From IMG/VR virus record IMGVR_UViG_3300027734_000054: a DNA stretch of 20,000 nucleotides; one strand, written 5' to 3'. Positions 1,842-13,768 of the stretch are shown here, piece by piece. Within the stretch, counting starts at the first letter, position 1, and each line of letters opens with the position of its first letter. The translations under genes and the position numbers were made by a program. The notes beneath the pieces were generated by a model. That model did not search any database and was not told the origin of the DNA. It saw only the letters and a program-made list of their open reading frames with translations. This DNA is from an uncultured virus (IMG/VR IMGVR_UViG_3300027734_000054) (lineage: Duplodnaviria > Heunggongvirae > Uroviricota > Caudoviricetes).

Positions 1842-2693
1842 TTAGAATCCATTAGTTGATGTATTATAGAAAACCAATCCAGTTACATTAGTCGTTTTAG
1901 TAATAGTAGGAGTTGAGTAATTAAATGTCATTACGTCACCACCACTCAACTCTCCAAATTGTATTCTTATAGGATAATAAACACCCGAAGTTAAAGCGAT
2001 TGTCCCAGATTTTTCGATTGTACCGTGTAATCCACCGTTATTAACTGTTGAGTTTGTTGTAGTGAATCCACTAACAGCATTACTACCAACCCAAACATAG
2101 GAGGCATCATCAGATGAAGTAAAGAATGTGTAGGTTTCTGTGGTGGTTGGTTTGAAATATCCTAACCATTGACAACTGAAATTTTCTCCATCATTCTGAG
2201 AAGGTTCAAATATAGAAGTGGTTTGTACTGATGTTGCCGGATTTCCACCTACCGATGCGGGAGTCGCAGTTGCAAAGAAACTAACATTATCAGCAAAATA
2301 CCCAGAGTAAGTCGTCTTATATAAACCTGCAAGATATGGATTTCTGTTAGTCCAATAGTTATTTGCTGTTAACCAATCATTAGCTGCTGAAGCAGATGCT
2401 TGTGTAGTACCGCTTATTATTTGTACTGTAATTCGAAAAGCTTCATCTGTATTAGTACATCCCCAGAATTGTACAGTGCCTATATTACCTACTTGAGTTG
2501 GAAAGTTTCCAGAGGGTACATCTTTAGCTATTATATAAGAATTATCCTCGTCTGGACCCATCCACCAAGTTAATCCCCCGGGTTTTGCACCATAGTTTAA
2601 AGCAGATACACCTACACATAATGTACCTACGTTTGTAGTTCCTGAAATTGTTGCTTGTGTTGGATTATATGCGAAAGGTCTTGATGTTGGCAT
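1842..2693 (-). CDS. PA14/GLEYA-domain protein, probably virion-associated and carbohydrate-binding
   Basis: C-terminal PA14-like signature (NFSCQWLGYFKPTTTETYTFFTSSDDASYVWVG...YYPIRIQFGELSGG). Start moved to ATG 2693 (MPTSRPF) because the longer start overlaps a tRNA-like RNA and a GATATATA motif. Confidence 0.75.
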   Translation of the reverse strand: MPTSRPFAYNPTQATISGTTNVGTLCVGVSALNYGAKPGGLTWWMGPDEDNSYIIAKDVPSGNFPTQVGNIGTVQFWGCTNTDEAFRITVQIISGTTQASASAANDWLTANNYWTNRNPYLAGLYKTTYSGYFADNVSFFATATPASVGGNPATSVQTTSIFEPSQNDGENFSCQWLGYFKPTTTETYTFFTSSDDASYVWVGSNAVSGFTTTNSTVNNGGLHGTIEKSGTIALTSGVYYPIRIQFGELSGGDVMTFNYSTPTITKTTNVTGLVFYNTSTNGF

Positions 2694-2715
2694 ATAGTAT
2701 ATATCAACAAAAAAG

Positions 2716-2820
2716 TACAAGAGATTGGACTTGCACCAATATGAACTTTCATTCTCGGGTAGATTACCCTAGCGTCTATCTATCGGATCATTGCAATGAT
2801 CACACTTCCGCCACTCTTAT
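2716..2820 (-). ncRNA. tRNA-like RNA (Leu-type body, hairpin inserted in D-loop, aberrant anticodon loop and T-loop)
   Basis: Acceptor AUAAGAG/CUCUUGU; D-arm UGGCGGAA...AGACGC; T-arm AUUGG-UGCAAGU-CCAAU; variable arm GAAU-GAAA-GUUC. Confidence 0.65.
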
Positions 2821-2825
2821 ATATG

Positions 2826-2909
2826 TACCCGGGACGGGAATCGAACCCGTACAACCAAATGGTTACAGCATTTTAAGTGCTGCGTGACTACCAATTCCAC
2901 CACCCGGGC
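2826..2909 (-). tRNA. tRNA-Leu(UAA)
   Basis: Cloverleaf: acceptor GCCCGGG/CCCGGGU, anticodon arm CAGCA-CUUAAAA-UGCUG, long variable arm, T-loop UUCGAUU. Confidence 0.95.
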
Positions 2910-2925
2910 GAATGTGTAATTTTTG

Positions 2926-2999
2926 TGGTCCCTCACGGGCTCGAACCGTGGACCTACTGATTATGAGTCAGTTGCTCTAACCTACTGAGCTAAAGGACC
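2926..2999 (-). tRNA. tRNA-Ile2(CAU), lysidine type (elongator Met not fully excluded)
   Basis: Anticodon arm ACUGA-CUCAUAA-UCAGU; acceptor GGUCCUU/AGGGACC with C4-G69 and C5-G68 as in ileX-type TilS substrates; no initiator features. Confidence 0.85.
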
Positions 3000-3003
3000 T
3001 AAG

Positions 3004-3077
3004 TAGAGACTATGGGAGTCGAACCCATGACCGCATGCGTATAAGGCATGTGCTCTAACCAATTGAGCTAAGCCTCT
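3004..3077 (-). tRNA. tRNA-Ile(UAU)
   Basis: Acceptor AGAGGCU/AGUCUCU; anticodon arm CAUGC-CUUAUAC-GCAUG; T-loop UUCGACU; discriminator A. Confidence 0.9.
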
Positions 3078-3085
3078 TGGGGCTG

Positions 3086-3158
3086 TCGGGATACCAGGAC
3101 TCGAACCTGGGGCCTCCTGGTCCCAAACCAGGCGATCTACCAACTGATCTACATCCCG
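3086..3158 (-). tRNA. tRNA-Pro(UGG)
   Basis: Acceptor CGGGAUG/UAUCCCG; anticodon arm CCUGG-UUUGGGA-CCAGG; C1-G72 and A73. Confidence 0.95.
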
Positions 3159-3333
3159 AAATTGTATGTCTTTAAATATCCCCAGAACATACAAACTGTG
3201 CTAACCCACGATTTAGAGAATAAGTGTGCATATCATTAAAGAATACCGAAATATTCTAACTGTCTACGTTGTAGAGGCATATTCTATCTTCGATCCATAC
3301 CCAGCGCTAGGCAGAGGGCTTTTTATTTTTTAG

Positions 3334-3405
3334 TACCCCCGGCGGGAATCGAACCCACATTGACGGTTTAGAAAACCGCTGTTCTATCCGTTGAACTACG
3401 GAGGC
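3334..3405 (-). tRNA. tRNA-Arg(UCU)
   Basis: Acceptor GCCUCCG/CGGGGGU; anticodon arm GCGGU-UUUCUAA-ACCGU; T-loop UUCGAUU. Confidence 0.93.
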
Positions 3406-3408
3406 AAT

Positions 3409-3498
3409 TGGAGGAGAGTGAGGGATTCGAACCCCCGGTAGCTTTCACTACGTCAGTTTTCAAGACTGGTGCATTAAACCGGGCTCTGCCAACTCTCC
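3409..3498 (-). tRNA. tRNA-Ser(UGA)
   Basis: Acceptor GGAGAGU/ACUCUCC; anticodon loop CUUGAAA; long variable arm; encoded CCA. Confidence 0.95.
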
Positions 3499-3514
3499 AA
3501 TTTGATAATCCAAC

Positions 3515-3526
3515 ATGTCAAAGAAC
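3515..3526 (-). promoter_or_regulatory. boxA-like antitermination element GTTCTTTGACAT
   Basis: Resembles rRNA-operon boxA (GCTCTTTAACA); lies just 5' of the first tRNA; near-identical copy at 7017-7028. Confidence 0.55.
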
Positions 3527-3528
3527 AC

Positions 3529-3561
3529 AAAAAAACCGGGACTTTTTGAAGGTCCCGGTTT
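3529..3561 (-). terminator. Intrinsic terminator in the tRNA-operon leader (attenuator)
   Basis: AAACCGGGAC-CUUCAAAAA-GUCCCGGUUU stem ending in a 7-U tract; its 5' arm can alternatively pair with 3587-3595. Confidence 0.85.
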
Positions 3562-3594
3562 AGTTAATGATTATTTTTTATTAACACAGGACCT

Positions 3595-3654
3595 TTAGGA
3601 TCGTCTTATCGACGGTCTTAATATTGAAGGTGATATGTTAAATATTGTTTTCAT
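3595..3654 (-). CDS. Putative 19-aa attenuator leader peptide MKTIFNISPSILRPSIRRS
   Basis: ATG AAA ACA ATA TTT AAC ATA TCA CCT TCA ATA TTA AGA CCG TCG ATA AGA CGA TCC TAA; below the ORF-track cutoff; codons match the downstream tRNA anticodons. Confidence 0.75.
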   Translation of the reverse strand: MKTIFNISPSILRPSIRRS

Positions 3655-3660
3655 TTGAAC

Positions 3661-3698
3661 TTTATATATCGTATTTGTTGTTTTGTTTCACAAATATA
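3661..3698 (-). promoter_or_regulatory. Stacked promoter motifs for the tRNA operon
   Basis: TATATTTG (Bacteroidota -7 TAnnTTTG) at 3691-3698; GAAAC-N18-TATAAA at 3661-3689; GATATATA at 3663-3670. Confidence 0.6.
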
Positions 3699-3704
3699 GA
3701 TATT

Positions 3705-3986
3705 TTATCTTATATAAAAAAATGATTTTCTGAAATCTTGAAGATTTATTTTTTTAGACTTACCTAAGTAAGAAGCGATATCTTCTGCAGTCTCTTCATC
3801 TTCGAGATCACATAGTATGTAGAAATCTGCATCATCTCTAAAATCTATTTTAGATTCTGTATAGAAAAATACATCATCAGATTCTTCTCCTTGATTTGGA
3901 TCTGAAAAATCTGATTCTAAATATTCGCAGATCTCTTCTTCCTCAAATTTAAATTCTTCGTATCCTGTATAGACTTTAATTGACAT
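3705..3986 (-). CDS. Hypothetical acidic protein
   Basis: 93-aa ORF starting just after the stop of 3989..4339. Confidence 0.7.
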   Translation of the reverse strand: MSIKVYTGYEEFKFEEEEICEYLESDFSDPNQGEESDDVFFYTESKIDFRDDADFYILCDLEDEETAEDIASYLGKSKKINLQDFRKSFFYIR

Positions 3987-3988
3987 AA

Positions 3989-4339
3989 TTAGATTTCTTC
4001 TACTAATACTTTTTTAAGTTCGTATGCGCCGTCCTGTCCAGGTACTTCATCATAATATCCAACGATTGAATATCTTCTTCCGTCAGAGCTTGAATCTTCT
4101 ATCATCTCGATATTGCTTACCATTGAACTTCCAACGTATTCTGGTTCAGAAGCGCCAGCAATTTCTATTGTTGTATCTTCCCCGTCTGCATTTTGAAAGT
4201 TAACAATGTAATTACCTTCGCTATTTCCGTCGGTAGGTCTAAAATCTGTAGTTTCTGCTTCAAAATGAACATCACTCATAGTGTCTTCCATAGGCATAGC
4301 CTCAGTGGAATATTGTTCGTAAATTCTTAGATATTTCAT
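3989..4339 (-). CDS. Hypothetical acidic protein with MKYLRIYEQY N-terminal motif
   Basis: 116-aa ORF; GATATATA at 4354-4361. Confidence 0.8.
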   Translation of the reverse strand: MKYLRIYEQYSTEAMPMEDTMSDVHFEAETTDFRPTDGNSEGNYIVNFQNADGEDTTIEIAGASEPEYVGSSMVSNIEMIEDSSSDGRRYSIVGYYDEVPGQDGAYELKKVLVEEI

Positions 4340-4365
4340 CTTTTTTTTTATTTTATATATCCTTA

Positions 4366-4512
4366 TTATTTACCTTGACCAACGTAAGCTTTCTTGTAGT
4401 TCTTAGAATTCTTACTTACACTACTTTTACACTTGGAATGAATTCCTGGTCTTTTTTTCTTAGAGCTGCGCTTGTGGTTCTTGCTAGAATCTGTAGTTTT
4501 AGGTTTAGCCAT
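4366..4512 (-). CDS. Small, highly basic 48-aa protein (MAKPKTTDSSKNHKRSSKKKRPGIHSKCKSSVSKNSKNYKKAYVGQGK)
   Basis: Translated by hand; fills the gap between flanking minus-strand genes; A-rich leader. The KxYxGQG C-terminus recalls small basic phage proteins. Confidence 0.75.
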   Translation of the reverse strand: MAKPKTTDSSKNHKRSSKKKRPGIHSKCKSSVSKNSKNYKKAYVGQGK

Positions 4513-4882: not shown

Positions 4883-6529
4883 TTAGGCTTCTACTGAATC
4901 CCAAATGTCTATAATTGCTTTAGCAAATATTGGTTCTTTACCTGTCCATCCTGCTAATATTCCTCCTCTATAAAGAGCTTCAGGAAGCACGGTGTTATTG
5001 TAGCCACCCACCTGTACAGTAAATAAATTAACTTTAGGATTAACCTTTTCCCTGTATTCCTGAGCCATAGCAAGTACGTCTACGTGTGTTCCCCCTCCTT
5101 TCGGGTGGATAAATTTACTTGATCCTACTGTTTCTCTGTGTCCAAAAAGACCTCCGTGCCCTGCCTGCATATCTGAATAGATAAAGATGTTGTCGTAATG
5201 GACTTTATTTTTAATAGCTTCATCAAAGAATACCCAAATACCATTTTCTGTACCACCTCCTTGAGCTTTACCTCTTTTAGATGTTTCATCCAATTGAGTA
5301 AGAAGACCGTTTCTTTTAGATACACCTTTTAATGAAAGGTTATCTCCAAATACTCCAACCTCTCCAGAATCGGATTGTAGTGAGGTAATTAAAGAAGACA
5401 AGTTAGCAATTTCTGCCACGGTAACTGTTCCATATTCGCTATTGAAAGCTCCCCATGCAGATCCGGAGTTATCTGAAAGACAAACTGTTTTACCTTTTAA
5501 CTTAGGCATATTCTCAACAGAGATATCTAAACATTCCTCTAAAGTATCCAAAACAAGTTGTTTGTGGTGGATCTGAGAATCTGTTACTGCTCTATAAGCA
5601 GACCAATATCTAAAAGGAAATTGTTTTCCCTTAACAACACCCGATTTTAATTGTGTTAAAATTCTAGCAGTAATTGTAGGATCTTCAACTTCAGTAAAAA
5701 TACCTCTAAGGTTTCTCAAAAGAGCCATGTGAGGGATTAAGATAGTATTTGTGATCTCTTCCCAAGATTTCTTTTCAGATCTTAAATTCTCCCAAGTTTT
5801 TTCCCGTTCTGTTATTTTTAATGTACCAGTTGACATTAGTTCGTTAATGTCCTCGCTTTTACCGTGGGAAATACGAACAAGATCTATTAATCTTTTACCT
5901 TTGTACTTATTCAATTGGTATCTAGAGAATTCAGAAAGTCTTTCTGCCCAAGTTCTTTTTACTAGTGAGGAAAGTCCTTTTTTGCTTCCGTTCTTATACA
6001 TGTAGTATTCAAACTGATTTGTTAAATCATCTGGACGTAGAGCAATTGACTTGCCTATCATTTTCATATATCCCGGATTTTCTTCGTTAAACTTCTGACG
6101 TCCTTCGTGCATACTCGCTTTCATGAATATTACAGCAGGATTTAAACGCATATAGTACTCGTTACGAAGTTCTAATGCTAAATCCAAGGTTGATTTAAAG
6201 TCGAAGTCCAATGATGCTTGTATGGCTTCCTCAAATATATCTACAACGCTCATATCGTCTTTTAAAGCTCCGGATTCGGATTTGAACATAGGAGCTAATA
6301 TAGAATAGTCAAGGATAGTGATAAGATTCTTAGGAGCACCTAATCCGTCTCTATAGTATTGTGGTTCACCAAAGATCGAAGACGCAGCAACAATCTTTAA
6401 AGTGTTTAGAGGCGATAAAACATAAGATGTTCCTCCCATGAAGTTCTCCACTCCTAGTGCTCCGTAAGTGGAGTTTTGTAAAATTTGCATTGCTGTTTTT
6501 TTGTCAGCAAATTCGCTTATTCTTGACAT
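4883..6529 (-). CDS. Ro60/Rsr-like TROVE-domain RNA-binding protein with C-terminal vWA domain
   Basis: 548 aa; TROVE motifs (FGEPQYY, YQLNKYK, LIDLVRISH, TWE, PHMALLRNLR, QFPFRYWSAY); vWA MIDAS motif DNSGS plus SDMQ. Confidence 0.93.
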   Translation of the reverse strand: MSRISEFADKKTAMQILQNSTYGALGVENFMGGTSYVLSPLNTLKIVAASSIFGEPQYYRDGLGAPKNLITILDYSILAPMFKSESGALKDDMSVVDIFEEAIQASLDFDFKSTLDLALELRNEYYMRLNPAVIFMKASMHEGRQKFNEENPGYMKMIGKSIALRPDDLTNQFEYYMYKNGSKKGLSSLVKRTWAERLSEFSRYQLNKYKGKRLIDLVRISHGKSEDINELMSTGTLKITEREKTWENLRSEKKSWEEITNTILIPHMALLRNLRGIFTEVEDPTITARILTQLKSGVVKGKQFPFRYWSAYRAVTDSQIHHKQLVLDTLEECLDISVENMPKLKGKTVCLSDNSGSAWGAFNSEYGTVTVAEIANLSSLITSLQSDSGEVGVFGDNLSLKGVSKRNGLLTQLDETSKRGKAQGGGTENGIWVFFDEAIKNKVHYDNIFIYSDMQAGHGGLFGHRETVGSSKFIHPKGGGTHVDVLAMAQEYREKVNPKVNLFTVQVGGYNNTVLPEALYRGGILAGWTGKEPIFAKAIIDIWDSVEA

Positions 6530-11800: not shown

Positions 11801-12940
11801 ACTTGTTCCTGATGAACCACTGGATCCTGAATTTCCACTAGACCCGGAGGTTCCACTCGTTCCTGAAGACCCACTAGATCCGGAGCTTCCGTTCGTTCCG
11901 CTTTCACCAGAAGATCCACTAGATCCTGAAGTTCCGCTAGTTCCTCTTGTTCCTGAAGTTCCTGAGCTACCATTAGCTCCTGGACTTCCGCTAGGTCCTA
12001 TTCCTCCTGAAGTACCTGAAGTACCTGAAGTACCACTTGATCCTGAAGATCCTGAATTTCCGCTGGGTCCTATTCCTCCAGATGTTCCACTAGTTCCACT
12101 TGATCCAGAAGATCCAGGACTTCCACTTGGTCCTATTCCACCAGAAGTACCAGAAGTACCACTTGATCCTGATGAACCAGATGAACCTGAAGTTCCCACC
12201 CCGCTAGTCCCGCTCGTAACACCGTAGAAGGATGTTCCAGATGTTCCAGATGTTCCCGCCACTCCTGACGTACCTGATGATCCAGAGGATCCATCGCTTC
12301 CTATTCCGCTTGTTCCCGATGAACCTGATGTTCCTGAGCCTGTGCCTGATCCAGTTCCAGAAGTACCACTAGTTCCAGAAGTACCACCACCGGAGGGAAC
12401 TGGAGGTATAAATGTAGGTGATATAAAAGTTGACTTTGATTCGTCAAAGAATATTATTGAATTTGTGTCAAATGTAGTAGGAGAAATAGTTGCCGTTGGG
12501 TAGCACATTAGAAAATCAGAAACACCAGCTACAGAATTATTTCTATCATTGTTTTTGAAATAAATGATCGGACATTTAACCTTAGCTATTACACCAGCGG
12601 TTTTTTGTGTTAATTCAGGGGATGCAAAAGGATTATCTTTAGAGAAATAATTAGGAATACCACTAACTAAATCAGATATAGATGTATCAATAGTAGCACT
12701 GGTTACACCTGTTACTAAACATGCAGGTATTCTGACTATATTATCTGTAGAAAATAATGTACCATTCCATTCTGCACAATAGAAAAAATCAACAGAAGCT
12801 GAAAATTGTTCTCTATTGTAACCCGTCCAGAATCTTAAACTTGAAATGCCTGTATCTATGACTTTAGCAAGTACCGGGTTTATAGAAATCTCGTATGTTT
12901 CTGGGTTGTATGTTCTCCCCGTTATTACTAATCCAATCAA
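8837..12940 (-). CDS. Large fibre-like virion protein with (G-S/T-S)n repeats, a CBM5/12-like module and beta-rich C-terminal domains
   Basis: 1367 aa; long Gly-X-Y tracts; WQGTWNGSNVYQINDLVEFLGSTY module; two BclA/C1q-like segments (ISLNTSTGQITL..KTYRI; ISYNTSTGIATL.AGTYRI). TTG start uncertain. Confidence 0.75.
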   Translation of the reverse strand: MIGLVITGRTYNPETYEISINPVLAKVIDTGISSLRFWTGYNREQFSASVDFFYCAEWNGTLFSTDNIVRIPACLVTGVTSATIDTSISDLVSGIPNYFSKDNPFASPELTQKTAGVIAKVKCPIIYFKNNDRNNSVAGVSDFLMCYPTATISPTTFDTNSIIFFDESKSTFISPTFIPPVPSGGGTSGTSGTSGTGSGTGSGTSGSSGTSGIGSDGSSGSSGTSGVAGTSGTSGTSFYGVTSGTSGVGTSGSSGSSGSSGTSGTSGGIGPSGSPGSSGSSGTSGTSGGIGPSGNSGSSGSSGTSGTSGTSGGIGPSGSPGANGSSGTSGTRGTSGTSGSSGSSGESGTNGSSGSSGSSGTSGTSGSSGNSGSSGSSGTSGISGSSGTSGSSGSSGTSGSSGTSGTSGTSGTSGTSGTSGSSGNSGSSGSSGTSGISGSSGTSGSSGSSGTSGLSGTSGSSGTSGTSGTSGTSGSSGTSGTSGSSGSSGTSGTSGSSGTSGSSGSSGTSGSSGSSGTSGSSGSSGTSGTRGTSGSSGTSGTSGSSGTSGSSGTSGSSGTRGTSGTSGTSFYWQGTWNGSNVYQINDLVEFLGSTYIAIASSIDINPSEGLGVQWQLFAAGGTNGTSGSSGTSGSSGTRGTSGSSGTSGTSGSSGSSGTSGTSGSSGTSGSSGSSGTSGTSGSSGTSGTSGSSGTSGSSGTRGTSGSSGTSGTSGTSGSSGTSGTSGTSGSSGTSGTSGSSGTSGSSGTSGSSGTSGTSGSSGTSGSSGTSGTSGTSGTSGSSGTSGSSGTSGTSGSSGTSGSSGTSGSSGTSGSSGTSGTSGSSGTSGSSGSSGTSGTSGTSGSSGTSGTSGTSGSSGTSGTSGSSGTSGTSGSSGTSGSSGTSGTSGSSGTSGSSGSSGTSGSSGSSGSSGTSGLSVSASFMRGSRSAQQTTGLTANSLVVFTQTDISTGSDISLNTSTGQITLAANKTYRILGQVPNIVSSGGSMALCWYNETSGAYIGSLSSTYSPTNGAAYATFGGPSEVILSTASSTVISYRITTNNSVTALGGNSDFATAGSYPWFDIEVISGYSPLINGTSGTSGSSGSSGTSGSSGTSGSSGTSGSSGSSGTSGSSGSSGSSGTSGTSFTVLNNTDNNVLTATGVSGQANGESTLTYDGVTLKMLAQSGDEGGEIFLNKPVTNTSISTGVTIDLYQNRLRIFESGGSARGAYIDLTTQTAGVATNLSPNAWLYVTRNTNQTIGSGSWASRDIVFNNQVYSNNISYNTSTGIATLTAGTYRITARLSWSMAANYLLQFSLFDTSNNQLGPTVEQIQPTSGSYNTSDATLDMIYDTASTIDVKIRTLSTTTALSGEYIRGDLNTQFIIHKL
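11601..11863. repeat. Exact 101-nt direct duplication (11601-11701 and 11763-11863) within the GSS/GTS tract
   Basis: Identical by eye, offset 162 nt (in frame), with 18-nt tandem units between the copies. Confidence 0.8.
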
Positions 12941-13009
12941 TTTGACAGCTTATTTTATTGTATATATTATACACTAAAACTTGGAAAATAATTCGTGGAT
13001 ATATACAAT

Positions 13010-13768
13010 ATGCCAAATGAACAATTAGAGAAATTAATAGAGTATCTTTCAGGTAAGCAGAAAGTGCTATTTTTAACAACCTCCAACAGATGGGAAGGGA
13101 GTAAGGAGATTCCTAAATCTACTCTTCTTGCGATGGATATTCAGAAAAAACTTAAAGGGACAACTGATGTAACTCTTTTGGAAATACCAAAATTAAAGAT
13201 ATTCCCTTGCGAAGGTAATGTATCTGGTGTTGATGGTAATAATTGCGGGGTTAAAGATGCACAACTAAATGACGAAGAGAAGGATCCTTCAGGAAATCAT
13301 AGATGCTGGGCTTCTCTTAATAATAAAGAAGATGAACTTTGGAAGGTTTCCAAAGAACTTTTTGAATCAGAAGCTGTTGTTTTCTTTATAAGTGTTAGGT
13401 GGGGTCAAGCAAACGCTTTTTATCAGAAGTTAATTGAAAGATTAAACTGGATTGAAAATAGGGCATCCACATTAGAAGATATAAACATAGTGGAAGGAAT
13501 AGATGCAGGGTGTGTTATCATAGGACAAAACTGGAATGAATCCGAAGTTTTAGAAACACAAAAGCAAGTTTATGAATTTTATGGCTTTAATGTACCTGAT
13601 GAAATTTCTTTTAGCTGGCAATTTACACAGGATTCTAATGACGAAAGACAGGAATCATACAAAGAAGCACCAAAACTTTTCGGAAGAGAATTCGAAATTT
13701 CAATTACTAGATTAAAAGAGTCCTTATCAAACCAATATAGAGGAATCAAAAGACTCTTTGAATTTTAA
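13010..13768 (+). CDS. Flavodoxin-like / NADPH-dependent FMN reductase family protein
   Basis: LFLTTSNR phosphate-binding-like loop, CEGNVS..C..C, SVRWGQANAFYQKLIERL. Start moved to ATG 13010, after GATATATA at 12998-13005. Confidence 0.75.
   Translation: MPNEQLEKLIEYLSGKQKVLFLTTSNRWEGSKEIPKSTLLAMDIQKKLKGTTDVTLLEIPKLKIFPCEGNVSGVDGNNCGVKDAQLNDEEKDPSGNHRCWASLNNKEDELWKVSKELFESEAVVFFISVRWGQANAFYQKLIERLNWIENRASTLEDINIVEGIDAGCVIIGQNWNESEVLETQKQVYEFYGFNVPDEISFSWQFTQDSNDERQESYKEAPKLFGREFEISITRLKESLSNQYRGIKRLFEF

Follow-up and report, generated by a model that had tools for sequence, protein, structure and literature searches.

Results

A leader open reading frame and a terminator precede a phage tRNA operon

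The stretch of DNA analysed here, 20,000 nucleotides (nt) in length and referred to as the window, derives from an uncultured virus of the Caudoviricetes (IMG/VR record IMGVR_UViG_3300027734_000054). On its minus strand it carries an operon of six tRNA genes (array 1), which is preceded by a short open reading frame (ORF), designated leader 1, and an intrinsic terminator (Table 1). These elements probably compose a ribosome-mediated transcription attenuator, which would tie synthesis of the tRNAs to the speed at which ribosomes decode the corresponding codons. A previous sequence-only reading of the region had described a 19-codon ORF between promoter motifs and the first tRNA (3654-3595), and within it 11 consecutive codons (7-17) matching the array. 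Both are present exactly as described, and each of these codons is readable by the six tRNAs downstream. Likewise, ARAGORN recovers all six tRNAs named in that reading, i.e. Ser-UGA, Arg-UCU, Pro-UGG, Ile-UAU, Ile2-CAU and Leu-UAA, at 3498-2825. The best full-length E. coli matches of the tRNA with anticodon CAU (80% identity) are annotated as tRNA-Ile, which backs its assignment as Ile2; it probably represents a lysidine-type tRNA-Ile2.

Table 1. Positions of observed and predicted features of leader 1 and tRNA array 1. Coordinates refer to the whole window; all leader-1 features lie on the minus strand.
Feature	Position	Strand	Remarks
Promoter-like box TATATTTG inside block CTATATTTGTGAAACAAAA	3691..3698	-	block invariant in 9/9 leader-1 homologues (alignment)
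TATAAT-like motif GATATATAA	3662..3670	-	7 nt 5' of leader-1 ATG; precedes all three leaders of the phage
Leader ORF	3595..3654	-	ATG at 3654, 19 codons, TAA at 3597-3595; encodes MKTIFNISPSILRPSIRRS
Segment 1, UUAACAUA..ACCUU	3627..3641	-	can pair with segment 2, AAGGU..UGUGUUAA; in minimum-free-energy fold
Control codons 7-17	3604..3636	-	ATA TCA CCT TCA ATA TTA AGA CCG TCG ATA AGA
Small hairpin CGUC-GAUAA-GACG within ORF	3602..3614	-	4 pairs, invariant in 9/9
Antiterminator 5' strand AAGGUCCUG	3587..3595	-	overlaps last base of leader-1 stop codon
Antiterminator inner helix	3563..3585	-	GUUAAU 3585-3580, 11-nt loop, AUUAAC 3568-3563
Intrinsic terminator	3529..3561	-	5' arm AAACCGGGAC 3561-3552, 9-nt loop, 3' arm GUCCCGGUUU 3542-3533, seven T to 3529
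12-mer GTTCTTTGACAT between terminator and first tRNA	3515..3526	-	conserved
tRNA-Ser (UGA)	3409..3498	-	ARAGORN, Rfam
tRNA-Arg (UCU)	3333..3405	-	ARAGORN, Rfam
Spacer, 174 nt, between tRNA-Arg and tRNA-Pro	3159..3332	-	inside array 1
tRNA-Pro (UGG)	3085..3158	-	ARAGORN, Rfam
tRNA-Ile (UAU)	3003..3077	-	ARAGORN, Rfam
tRNA with anticodon CAU	2925..2999	-	ARAGORN label Met
tRNA-Leu (UAA)	2825..2909	-	ARAGORN, Rfam
Operon 3' end, tRNA-like multibranch element	2714..2824	-	ends in terminator-like hairpin and T run 2737-2714

Upstream of leader 1, the box TATATTTG resembles the -7 element of Bacteroidota-type promoters, for which we presume the consensus TAnnTTTG, and comparable boxes also precede the two other leaders of this phage, leaders 2 and 3 (see below). 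A scan of the leader-1 region for consensus sigma-70 promoters found none. The motif GATATATAA could provide an alternative -10 element, in which case the mRNA would be leaderless or nearly so. In a second lineage, represented by record G002, the leaders are preceded by GGTATAAT or GTATATTAT.

The RNA structures proposed in the sequence-only reading are also found where it had placed them. The strong terminator (3561-3529) comprises a 10-bp stem and has a hairpin energy of -15.0 kcal/mol; it was missed by a scan for consensus terminators because its 9-nt loop exceeds 8 nt. Bases 3557-3549 of this terminator, belonging to the 5' arm and including three loop bases, double as the 3' strand of a putative antiterminator: AAGGUCCUG (3595-3587) can form nine pairs, one of them G-U, with CGGGACCUU (3557-3549), and enclosed between these strands the complementary stretches GUUAAU and AUUAAC may form an inner helix. 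Pairing of segment 1 with segment 2 represents a candidate anti-antiterminator, and the small hairpin CGUC-GAUAA-GACG inside the ORF may act as a pause or spacer element. The predicted fold of the leader-1 region beats 200 of 200 shuffled sequences (z = -4.43).

The leader-1 codons match array 1 beyond chance

Genome-wide counts made use of virus record G001 (49,176 bp), which is 100% identical to the window over 1701 nt. This record is estimated to be 17% complete, and therefore the phage must be large. Its tRNAs comprise 25 genes detected by ARAGORN in three clusters and one probable tRNA-Ser(GCU), and together they cover all 20 amino acids. Because every four-codon box is served by a tRNA with U34 in this phage, such tRNAs were counted for the whole box (box-level counting). 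The array-1 codon set as given in the sequence-only reading accounts for 16.9% of phage codon usage and the box-level set for 21.3% (48 long ORFs, 14,898 codons).

In leader 1, 13 of the 18 codons match the array (p = 1.4e-5, background 0.23); the background behind this value, precisely 23.1%, counts ATG too and is conservative as compared to 21.3%. The two other frames yield 1/17 and 0/17 matches, and comparison of leader 1 with array 2 yields 0/18. Across the six frames of the 49,176-bp record, intergenic DNA included, no other stretch of array-1 codons reaches 11; the runner-up is a run of nine in a PSPPSPPS repeat. With about 0.0003-0.003 such 11-codon runs expected, the chance of a fortuitous match, which the sequence-only reading had left to be computed, is negligible. 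CCG and TCG, both among the control codons, are rare in phage codon usage, as are CGC, GCG and GTG.

Two further tRNA operons of the phage possess leaders of the same design

Both other tRNA clusters are preceded by a like unit, consisting of a TAnnTTT(G/A) box, a TATATAA(T) motif, a short ORF, a terminator and the 12-mer. The pattern of the latter, G.TCTTTGA[AC]AT, i.e. GTTCTTTGA(C/A)AT, occurs at exactly three places in the 49-kb record, one behind each attenuator terminator and 5-30 nt 5' of the first tRNA; in the window, GTTCTTTGA has one exact match. The 12-mer may serve as a promoter element, as a processing site or for binding.

Leader 2, MKHFLNIAIDFQLHKEDDLLEDTIKCQRK, lies upstream of the genes for tRNAs Glu-UUC, Asp-GUC, Met-CAU and Leu-UAG and matches this array at 9 of 28 codons (p = 0.038). 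Its run GAA GAT GAC CTT CTA GAG GAT is tied for the longest run of array-2 codons in the six frames of the 49-kb record. Leader 3, MKNCSKHNINRMISQINGCYQTVAFWAKGKEPDRS, precedes 15 tRNAs detected by ARAGORN (Phe, Lys, Trp, Arg-ACG, Cys, Ile-GAU, Val, Asn, Tyr, Gly, Ala, Met, His, Thr and Gln) and the probable tRNA-Ser(GCU). It matches its array at 31 of 34 codons (p = 2.4e-4), or at 28 of 34 (p = 4.5e-3) when Ser-GCU is disregarded, and its run of 31 ranks second in the six frames of the record, behind a collagen-like repeat. Moreover, leader 3 contains a codon for each of the 15 ARAGORN tRNAs, as do only 6.5e-5 of random 34-codon strings. None of the six cross-comparisons between the three leaders and the three arrays shows enrichment, and the combined p value for the three leaders with their own arrays (Fisher) is 4e-8 to 5e-7. 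Replication of the design within the same genome is the most informative result of this analysis.

Concerning the additional gene in array 3, a tRNA-like sequence with GCU at the anticodon position and a long variable arm is located between tRNA-Cys and tRNA-Ile-GAU (about 2140-2226 of locus L003). It was missed by ARAGORN and scores 36.6 bits with the Rfam tRNA-Sec model, which is below the 47-bit threshold; it is probably a tRNA-Ser(GCU). The 236-237-nt gap between tRNA-Cys and tRNA-Ile-GAU that it occupies is the same in all relatives.

Frame, codon set and pairings of leader 1 are kept in relatives

A pattern scan for leader 1 returned 36 places, of which nine are leader homologues and 27 represent unrelated GC-rich coding DNA. 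The relatives are uncultured IMG/VR contigs of 100-290 kb. Conservation of the ORF and of the alternative pairing, on which the sequence-only reading had made its proposal depend, is observed: the frame and both helices are retained in 9/9 homologues and the ATG in 8/9. Codons 7-17 remain within the array-1 set at 11 of 11 positions in all eight relatives, even though the residues at positions 8, 10, 11, 12 and 16 swap among Ser, Leu and Ile (TCA, TTA and ATA, plus TCC, TCT and CCC). Homologue L117 differs at 7 of these 33 nt, and only 0.2% of random stop-free mutants would stay in the set; for L097 the corresponding figure is 2.6%, the two tests being non-independent as the sequences are related. 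Codons 2-6, in turn, lie outside the set and vary freely. In one subgroup, a 1-nt insertion shifts the stop codon five codons on, past AAGGUCCUG, and therefore a terminating ribosome would still be positioned over the AAGGUCCUG strand.

The leader-1 helices are 95-99% paired, i.e. in 97.5% of alignment cells for the antiterminator (with 3557-3549) and 98.9% for the terminator, and pairing of segments 1 and 2 is retained in 94% of cells in the nine sequences. In the subgroup with the inserted nucleotide, comprising L098, L102, L110, L119 and L097, inspection by eye suggests that the inner antiterminator helix is replaced by UUAGUUU/AAACUAA. The terminator of leader 3 shows one compensatory change, from GGCTTTGAT/ATCAAAGCC to GGCTTCGAT/ATCGAAGCC.

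Beyond these relatives, a search for cultured ones was negative: blastn of 3499-3705 against 50,697 deposited phage records gave no match, and blastn of 2700-4400 gave nothing but tRNA-level similarity covering no more than 13% of the query. In the more distant phages L066, L070, L073, L074 and L077, tRNA arrays lack a leader and have an ordinary gene or a plain promoter upstream.

A second lineage groups its tRNAs differently

The sequence-only reading had asked whether leader codons co-vary with the content of the array. They do so among the three leaders and arrays of one genome as described above, and also in another lineage, represented by G002 (252 kb, 93% complete) and G007 (253 kb, 94% complete), in which the tRNAs are grouped differently. 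A small array of G002 unites tRNAs for Cys, His, Leu-UAA and Arg-UCU, which are split between arrays 3 and 1 in the phage of the window. Its leader, MKTLSLHRLSLCTHRSRSEGLKS, contains TTA four times, CAT, CAC, TGT and twice AGA, and matches its own array at 9 of 22 codons (background 0.086, p = 4.4e-5). In G007 (locus L132), this array has gained a tRNA-Arg(ACG), and in the leader CGC replaces the CAC of G002, raising the count to 11/22 (p = 7.6e-7); two changes in the antiterminator strand keep the pairing. A further pattern scan returned four matches, two of which are unrelated. The single tRNA genes of G002, Ser-UGA and Leu-UAG, have no leader.

Ribosome position is predicted to select between antiterminator and terminator

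Five leaders of unrelated sequence each have, in or just past their last codons, a segment able to pair with the 5' arm of the terminator: AAGGUCCUG with CGGGACCUU in leader 1, UCAGAGG with CCUCUGA in leader 2, AUCGAAGCU with GGCUUUGAU in leader 3, CGAGGUUC with GAACCUCG in the leader of the G002 main array and CUUAAGUC with GGCUUAAG in the leader of the G002 Cys-His-Leu-Arg array. When the 39 nt around the stop codon were shuffled and pairing with the terminator stem only was considered, 173, 7, 22, 0 and 69 of 2000 shuffles, in the same order, equalled the natural pairing (combined p = 9e-7); the figure for leader 1 is weak in part because the stem-only test omits the loop bases that provide three of its nine pairs. 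The stop codon is followed at a distance of 23-36 nt by the terminator, whose hairpin (-11 to -21 kcal/mol) precedes a T run. ORF and terminator are present at 21 of the 24 arrays examined in nine records, which are related and hence non-independent.

Next to the layout, the sequence-only reading had suggested folding the leader with and without the segment covered by a ribosome. For this, nascent RNA up to the terminator loop was folded with a footprint masked from 15 nt before to 9, 12 or 15 nt after the A site. With the A site at codons up to 17 (leader 1), 22 (leader 2) or 29 (leader 3), the terminator 5' arm is predicted to be sequestered (P about 0.9-1.0), and sequestration drops to 0.0-0.5 once the ribosome is placed further on or at the stop codon. 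For leader 1, this means that sequestration holds for A-site codons 2-17 and is released at codons 18-20. The switch points are robust to all three mask lengths and coincide with the last matched codon, i.e. codon 17, 22 and 29-30 of leaders 1, 2 and 3, respectively, and it is the few codons outside the array set, located at the ORF ends, that form the antiterminator strand. The leader of the G002 main array switches at codon 32-33 and that of the Cys-His-Leu-Arg array, less sharply, near codon 15. Thus, in these models the flip from antiterminator to terminator occurs where the matched codons end.

As a test of the switch, the full leader was also folded at equilibrium with the ribosome masked, an approach that was dropped in favour of nascent RNA because the terminator dominates at all ribosome positions in leaders 1 and 3.

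RNA-library contigs cover parts of the leader and the operon

A 231-nt contig from an RNA library spans 3413-3641 with two differences and thereby joins tRNA-Ser, the terminator and most of the leader ORF. The Arg-Pro spacer is matched at 100% identity by RNA contigs from two other studies. The four RNA libraries are available as contigs, from which ends, strand and expression levels are not readable, and 3671-4100 is uncovered, which has no bearing either way; most of the RNA pieces, 90-95% alike, are tRNA parts of other organisms. The libraries containing parts of the region are labelled as freshwater, river and lake metagenomes.

Surroundings of the tRNA operons

The Arg-Pro spacer of array 1 (3159-3332) shows nothing notable upon folding (z = +0.65); it measures 166-174 nt in most relatives and 5 nt in G006. 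Following tRNA-Leu, an element of about 100 nt displays an acceptor-like closing stem and a T-arm-like sequence, UUGGUGCAAGUCCAA. The fold of this element (2714-2824) is not significant (z = -1.1) and it matches no Rfam family. Upstream of the tRNA operon, at a distance of 1.4 kb, a gene (4883-6529, minus strand) encodes a TROVE (Ro60-like) protein of 548 amino acids (Pfam PF05731, 35.9 bits; PHROG 850, 'RNA-binding protein'). The protein is 51.6% identical to gp540 of Bacillus phage G and has weaker matches in crAss-like Bacteroides phages; a Y-RNA partner was not found. Given the proximity of this gene, a Y-RNA-like role of the 2714-2824 element is conceivable. The gene after the tRNA operon (1842-2720, minus strand) encodes 292 amino acids with a PA14/GLEYA carbohydrate-binding domain; of the 79 viral loci with a homologue, only some adjoin tRNA arrays. 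Other neighbours encode a collagen-like tail fibre and thymidylate synthase.

Several arrays contain insertions. In L083/L087 (contig of L006), a protein-coding gene is inserted between the leader-1 terminator and tRNA-Ser, and in L127 a gene with an HNH-like motif (by eye) sits in array 2 between tRNA-Met and tRNA-Leu-UAG (5540-6136). These inserted genes are probably homing endonuclease genes, as in the T4 tRNA cluster, which contains the segB gene (PMC2330249). L126 and L127 share an extra conserved structured element, AGGAATAAGG...CCTTATTCCT followed by a T run, in the about 100 nt between the leader-2 terminator and 12-mer and tRNA-Glu. In G002, two further tRNA-like sequences follow tRNA-Leu-UAG (L125, about 12860-13060 in reverse-complement coordinates): one has a tRNA score of 25.8 bits, below threshold, and the other, of about 105 nt with a T-arm-like end, may be an interrupted or unusual tRNA.

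Discussion

A model for attenuation of the tRNA operons

Taken together, our data argue that the tRNA operon is governed by a codon-specific, ribosome-mediated transcription attenuator of the trp/his type, a reading to which we assign a probability of roughly 0.78. This large freshwater phage would then probably make the tRNA set only when ribosomes decode its codons slowly. Each computational check suggested in the sequence-only reading turned out in its favour. The sequences bear out the proposed attenuator layout as regards its component parts and their conservation, the match between leader codons and array and the mutual exclusion of the pairings; translation of the ORF, the physiological trigger and the direction of the switch, i.e. 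from stalling to read-through, are inferred, the latter from folding.

According to this model, transcription would start from the promoter-like box near 3698-3691 or from the TATAAT-like motif near 3670, and a ribosome would translate the 19-codon leader while RNA polymerase advances. If codons 7-17 (AUA, UCA, CCU, UUA, AGA, CCG and UCG) are decoded fast, the ribosome would reach the end of the ORF and cover AAGGUCCUG, allowing the terminator hairpin to form and transcription to stop at about 3529. When charged tRNA is scarce, the ribosome would stall on a matching codon and leave AAGGUCCUG free, which could then pair with CGGGACCUU in the terminator 5' arm, so that the polymerase reads through into the six tRNA genes. 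The outcome would be negative feedback on the supply of exactly those tRNAs. This design would be used three times, once per tRNA operon, with each leader listing the codons of its own operon. The RNA-library contig bridging leader and tRNA-Ser is compatible with read-through transcripts.

Several observations weigh against this interpretation. First, folding of full-length RNA at equilibrium favours the terminator (P = 0.97) at every ribosome position in leaders 1 and 3, and therefore the switch must be kinetic, operating co-transcriptionally. Nascent RNA without a ribosome is still dominated by the antiterminator (P = 0.91), despite the pairing of segments 1 and 2 in the minimum-free-energy fold, which might otherwise enforce termination of an untranslated leader. 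Second, no double-sided changes are seen in leader 1, be it in the antiterminator (0/15 pairs), the terminator (0/10) or the helix of segments 1 and 2 (0/17), and the shuffle controls for covariation are uninformative because most pairs never vary; thus the leader-1 structures are supported by conservation, to which covariation adds nothing. Third, L097 has ATA in place of the ATG, and its array is rearranged to Arg, Ile-UAU and Glu. Fourth, U34 tRNAs are assumed to decode whole boxes (CCU, UCC); counts with classical wobble were made as well. The bridging RNA contig has a low depth of 2.4, and DNA may be present in RNA libraries.

The fit between leaders and arrays is also imperfect. Taken over its full length, leader 2 shows only weak enrichment (p = 0.004-0.17 among relatives). 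In G004, nine array-3 tRNAs are absent and the leader is unchanged; G003 lacks Leu-UAA, yet two TTA codons remain in its leader. Finally, the G002 main array, with 13 tRNAs, has a leader without significant enrichment for their codons (26/42, p = 0.25), in which a different frame offers an alternative ORF starting with ATG; we keep this leader as neutral evidence. This leader has five Asn and two Lys codons, and since the G007 main array (17 tRNAs) includes tRNAs for Asn and Lys, G002 appears to have lost these tRNAs, its leader lagging behind. From the lags in G002, G004 and G003 it follows that leaders track arrays over longer evolutionary spans and not over short ones.

These discrepancies, i.e. 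the weak enrichment of leader 2 and the leaders of G004, G003 and the G002 main array that do not track their arrays, would be accommodated if the attenuator were real and sensed the general status of translation, with few ribosomes, stress or the stage of infection opening the operons and codon matching being secondary. Indeed, the folding model requires only that the ribosome fails to reach the end of the ORF. We regard this possibility as improbable, because it leaves unexplained why three non-overlapping codon sets each match their own operon while cross-comparisons are unenriched, why substitutions stay inside the set and why codons for Cys, His, Leu and Arg occur together in front of the array that unites the corresponding tRNAs.

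A slightly worse account of the data is that promoter, ORF and terminator form an independent small gene, encoding a micropeptide or small RNA and always terminating, with the arrays starting downstream, perhaps at the GTTCTTTGAMAT box. The terminator is strong and favoured at equilibrium. The 12-mer occurs only behind the three terminators and includes TTGACA or TTGAAA; if it were a promoter element that has escaped recognition, this would speak against attenuation as well. However, the 5-30 nt between the 12-mer and the tRNA contain no -10-like or TAnnTTTG box, and the 12-mer is absent from the G002/G007 lineage, which has the leader design nonetheless. Moreover, an RNA-library contig joins leader ORF, terminator and tRNA-Ser, the Ser/Leu/Ile swaps at five positions fit the function of a peptide poorly, and both the codon-anticodon matching and the antiterminator complementarity would remain without explanation.

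Codons complementary to the anticodons of the array, located upstream of an antiterminator/terminator pair, are also reminiscent of a translation-independent, T-box-like RNA that binds tRNAs directly, using the row of codons as multiple 'specifiers', and the relative without an ATG would suit such an element. This is very unlikely: no match to T-box or other riboswitch families in Rfam was obtained at E up to 1 (2400-4100) or 0.01 (loci of leaders 2, 3 and the G002 main leader), and the matched codons occupy one frame, with the start kept in 8/9 and the stop in 9/9 homologues and the other frames giving 1/17 and 0/17. Besides, we know of no precedent for up to 29 consecutive 'specifiers'. Lastly, an accidental encounter of an AT-rich intergenic ORF and its AT-rich codons with a terminator ending the upstream gene can practically be dismissed: although ATA, TTA, TCA and AGA rank high in the codon usage of the AT-rich phage and the ORF and codon window were picked after being seen, no longer run occurs anywhere in the 49 kb when six frames and intergenic DNA are counted, relatives conserve the ORF, and the design recurs at two more operons and in a second lineage.

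Relation to known attenuators and phage tRNA clusters

Leader-peptide attenuators are known from enterobacterial amino-acid operons, e.g. trpL, hisL, leuL, thrL and pheL, and the ilvGMEDA and thr leaders are multivalent. The phage leaders resemble them in having a short ORF with a row of control codons, an ORF end that overlaps the antiterminator strand and a terminator just before the regulated genes, with ribosome position predicted to decide the outcome. A further likeness is the use of rare codons as sensitive probes (CCG, TCG, CGC, GCG and GTG in the phage), as exemplified by CUA in leuL. In contrast to these operons, the phage would regulate the tRNAs themselves rather than enzymes that make amino acids, and therefore the loop would close on tRNA supply. 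In addition, one leader would poll up to 15-16 tRNA species as compared to one to three amino acids in known leaders, and leaders polling that many would to our knowledge be the most multivalent attenuators; the element is of phage origin, has Bacteroidota-type promoter boxes and belongs to no Rfam leader family. In the Rfam searches only tRNAs passed thresholds; Thr_leader (RF00506) reached 25.7 bits against a gathering threshold of 55 and L20_leader 22.4 against 58.7, and no leader family was found at E up to 0.01 at the loci of leaders 2, 3 and the G002 main leader. Sub-threshold matches (Thr_leader, L20_leader, YrlA, sX4 and others) were set aside as being of no use as evidence.

A component of the translation apparatus is likewise controlled by the pheM leader of the E. 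coli pheST operon, which encodes phenylalanyl-tRNA synthetase and is subject to leader-peptide attenuation by the level of charged tRNA; pheM regulates a synthetase with one amino acid, whereas here tRNA genes would be regulated by many codons. T-box riboswitches (RF00230) bind uncharged tRNA directly and do not need the ribosome. They share with the phage leaders that the state of tRNAs picks terminator or antiterminator upstream of translation-related genes, and differ in that the phage leaders have no T-box match and carry their matched codons in the frame of an ORF. The tRNA cluster of phage T4 is comparable in that its array complements the host pool and carries inserted homing-endonuclease genes, for which we have candidates here. 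No leader-peptide control is known to us for phage tRNA clusters such as that of T4.

In E. coli, a terminator located a few bp after a gene is reported to be repressed by the ribosome, and the distance between stop codon and terminator matters (PMC4824070). The phage leaders agree with these terminators in that a ribosome at the end of an ORF would modulate a nearby terminator, and differ from what is described there in that the stop codon precedes the terminator 5' arm by 23-36 nt; therefore, the ribosome should cover the antiterminator strand and not the terminator. A literature search, in which subscription journals were thinly covered, found no account of tRNA genes or phage tRNA arrays being controlled by a leader peptide or an attenuator, in line with the sequence-only reading, to which no described phage tRNA array under such control was known.

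Implications for phage tRNA supply

Leader-peptide attenuation is a textbook mechanism for genes that make amino acids or charge tRNAs; for tRNA genes, we found no description. If the attenuator reading is true, phage tRNA genes are regulated by direct feedback from decoding speed, which would offer a new answer to the questions why and when phages carry tRNAs. The order of tRNA genes would become interpretable, with operons representing co-sensed sets, and the leaders would constitute a natural, compact sensor for the availability of individual tRNAs, which would be programmable because the leader codons set what is sensed. An arms race between phage tRNAs and tRNA-cleaving host defences would become testable, as the loss of one tRNA species to cleavage should switch on just a single operon. 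A link to host anticodon nucleases, as proposed in the sequence-only reading, is pure inference.

Tentatively, and with less confidence than we place in attenuation as such, we suggest that the three attenuators could together supply tRNAs on demand and at the same time serve as a sensor for counter-defence, and that large Bacteroidota phages might commonly use this design; this is a possible rather than a probable extension of the model. If so, each leader would be a multiplexed probe that polls 4 to 16 tRNA species per ribosome pass, and a fall of any polled tRNA, whether due to a mismatch in codon usage, to phage-induced shut-off or to host anticodon nucleases, would switch on the matching replacement set within seconds. 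The need for joint induction would thereby shape the grouping of phage tRNA genes into operons.

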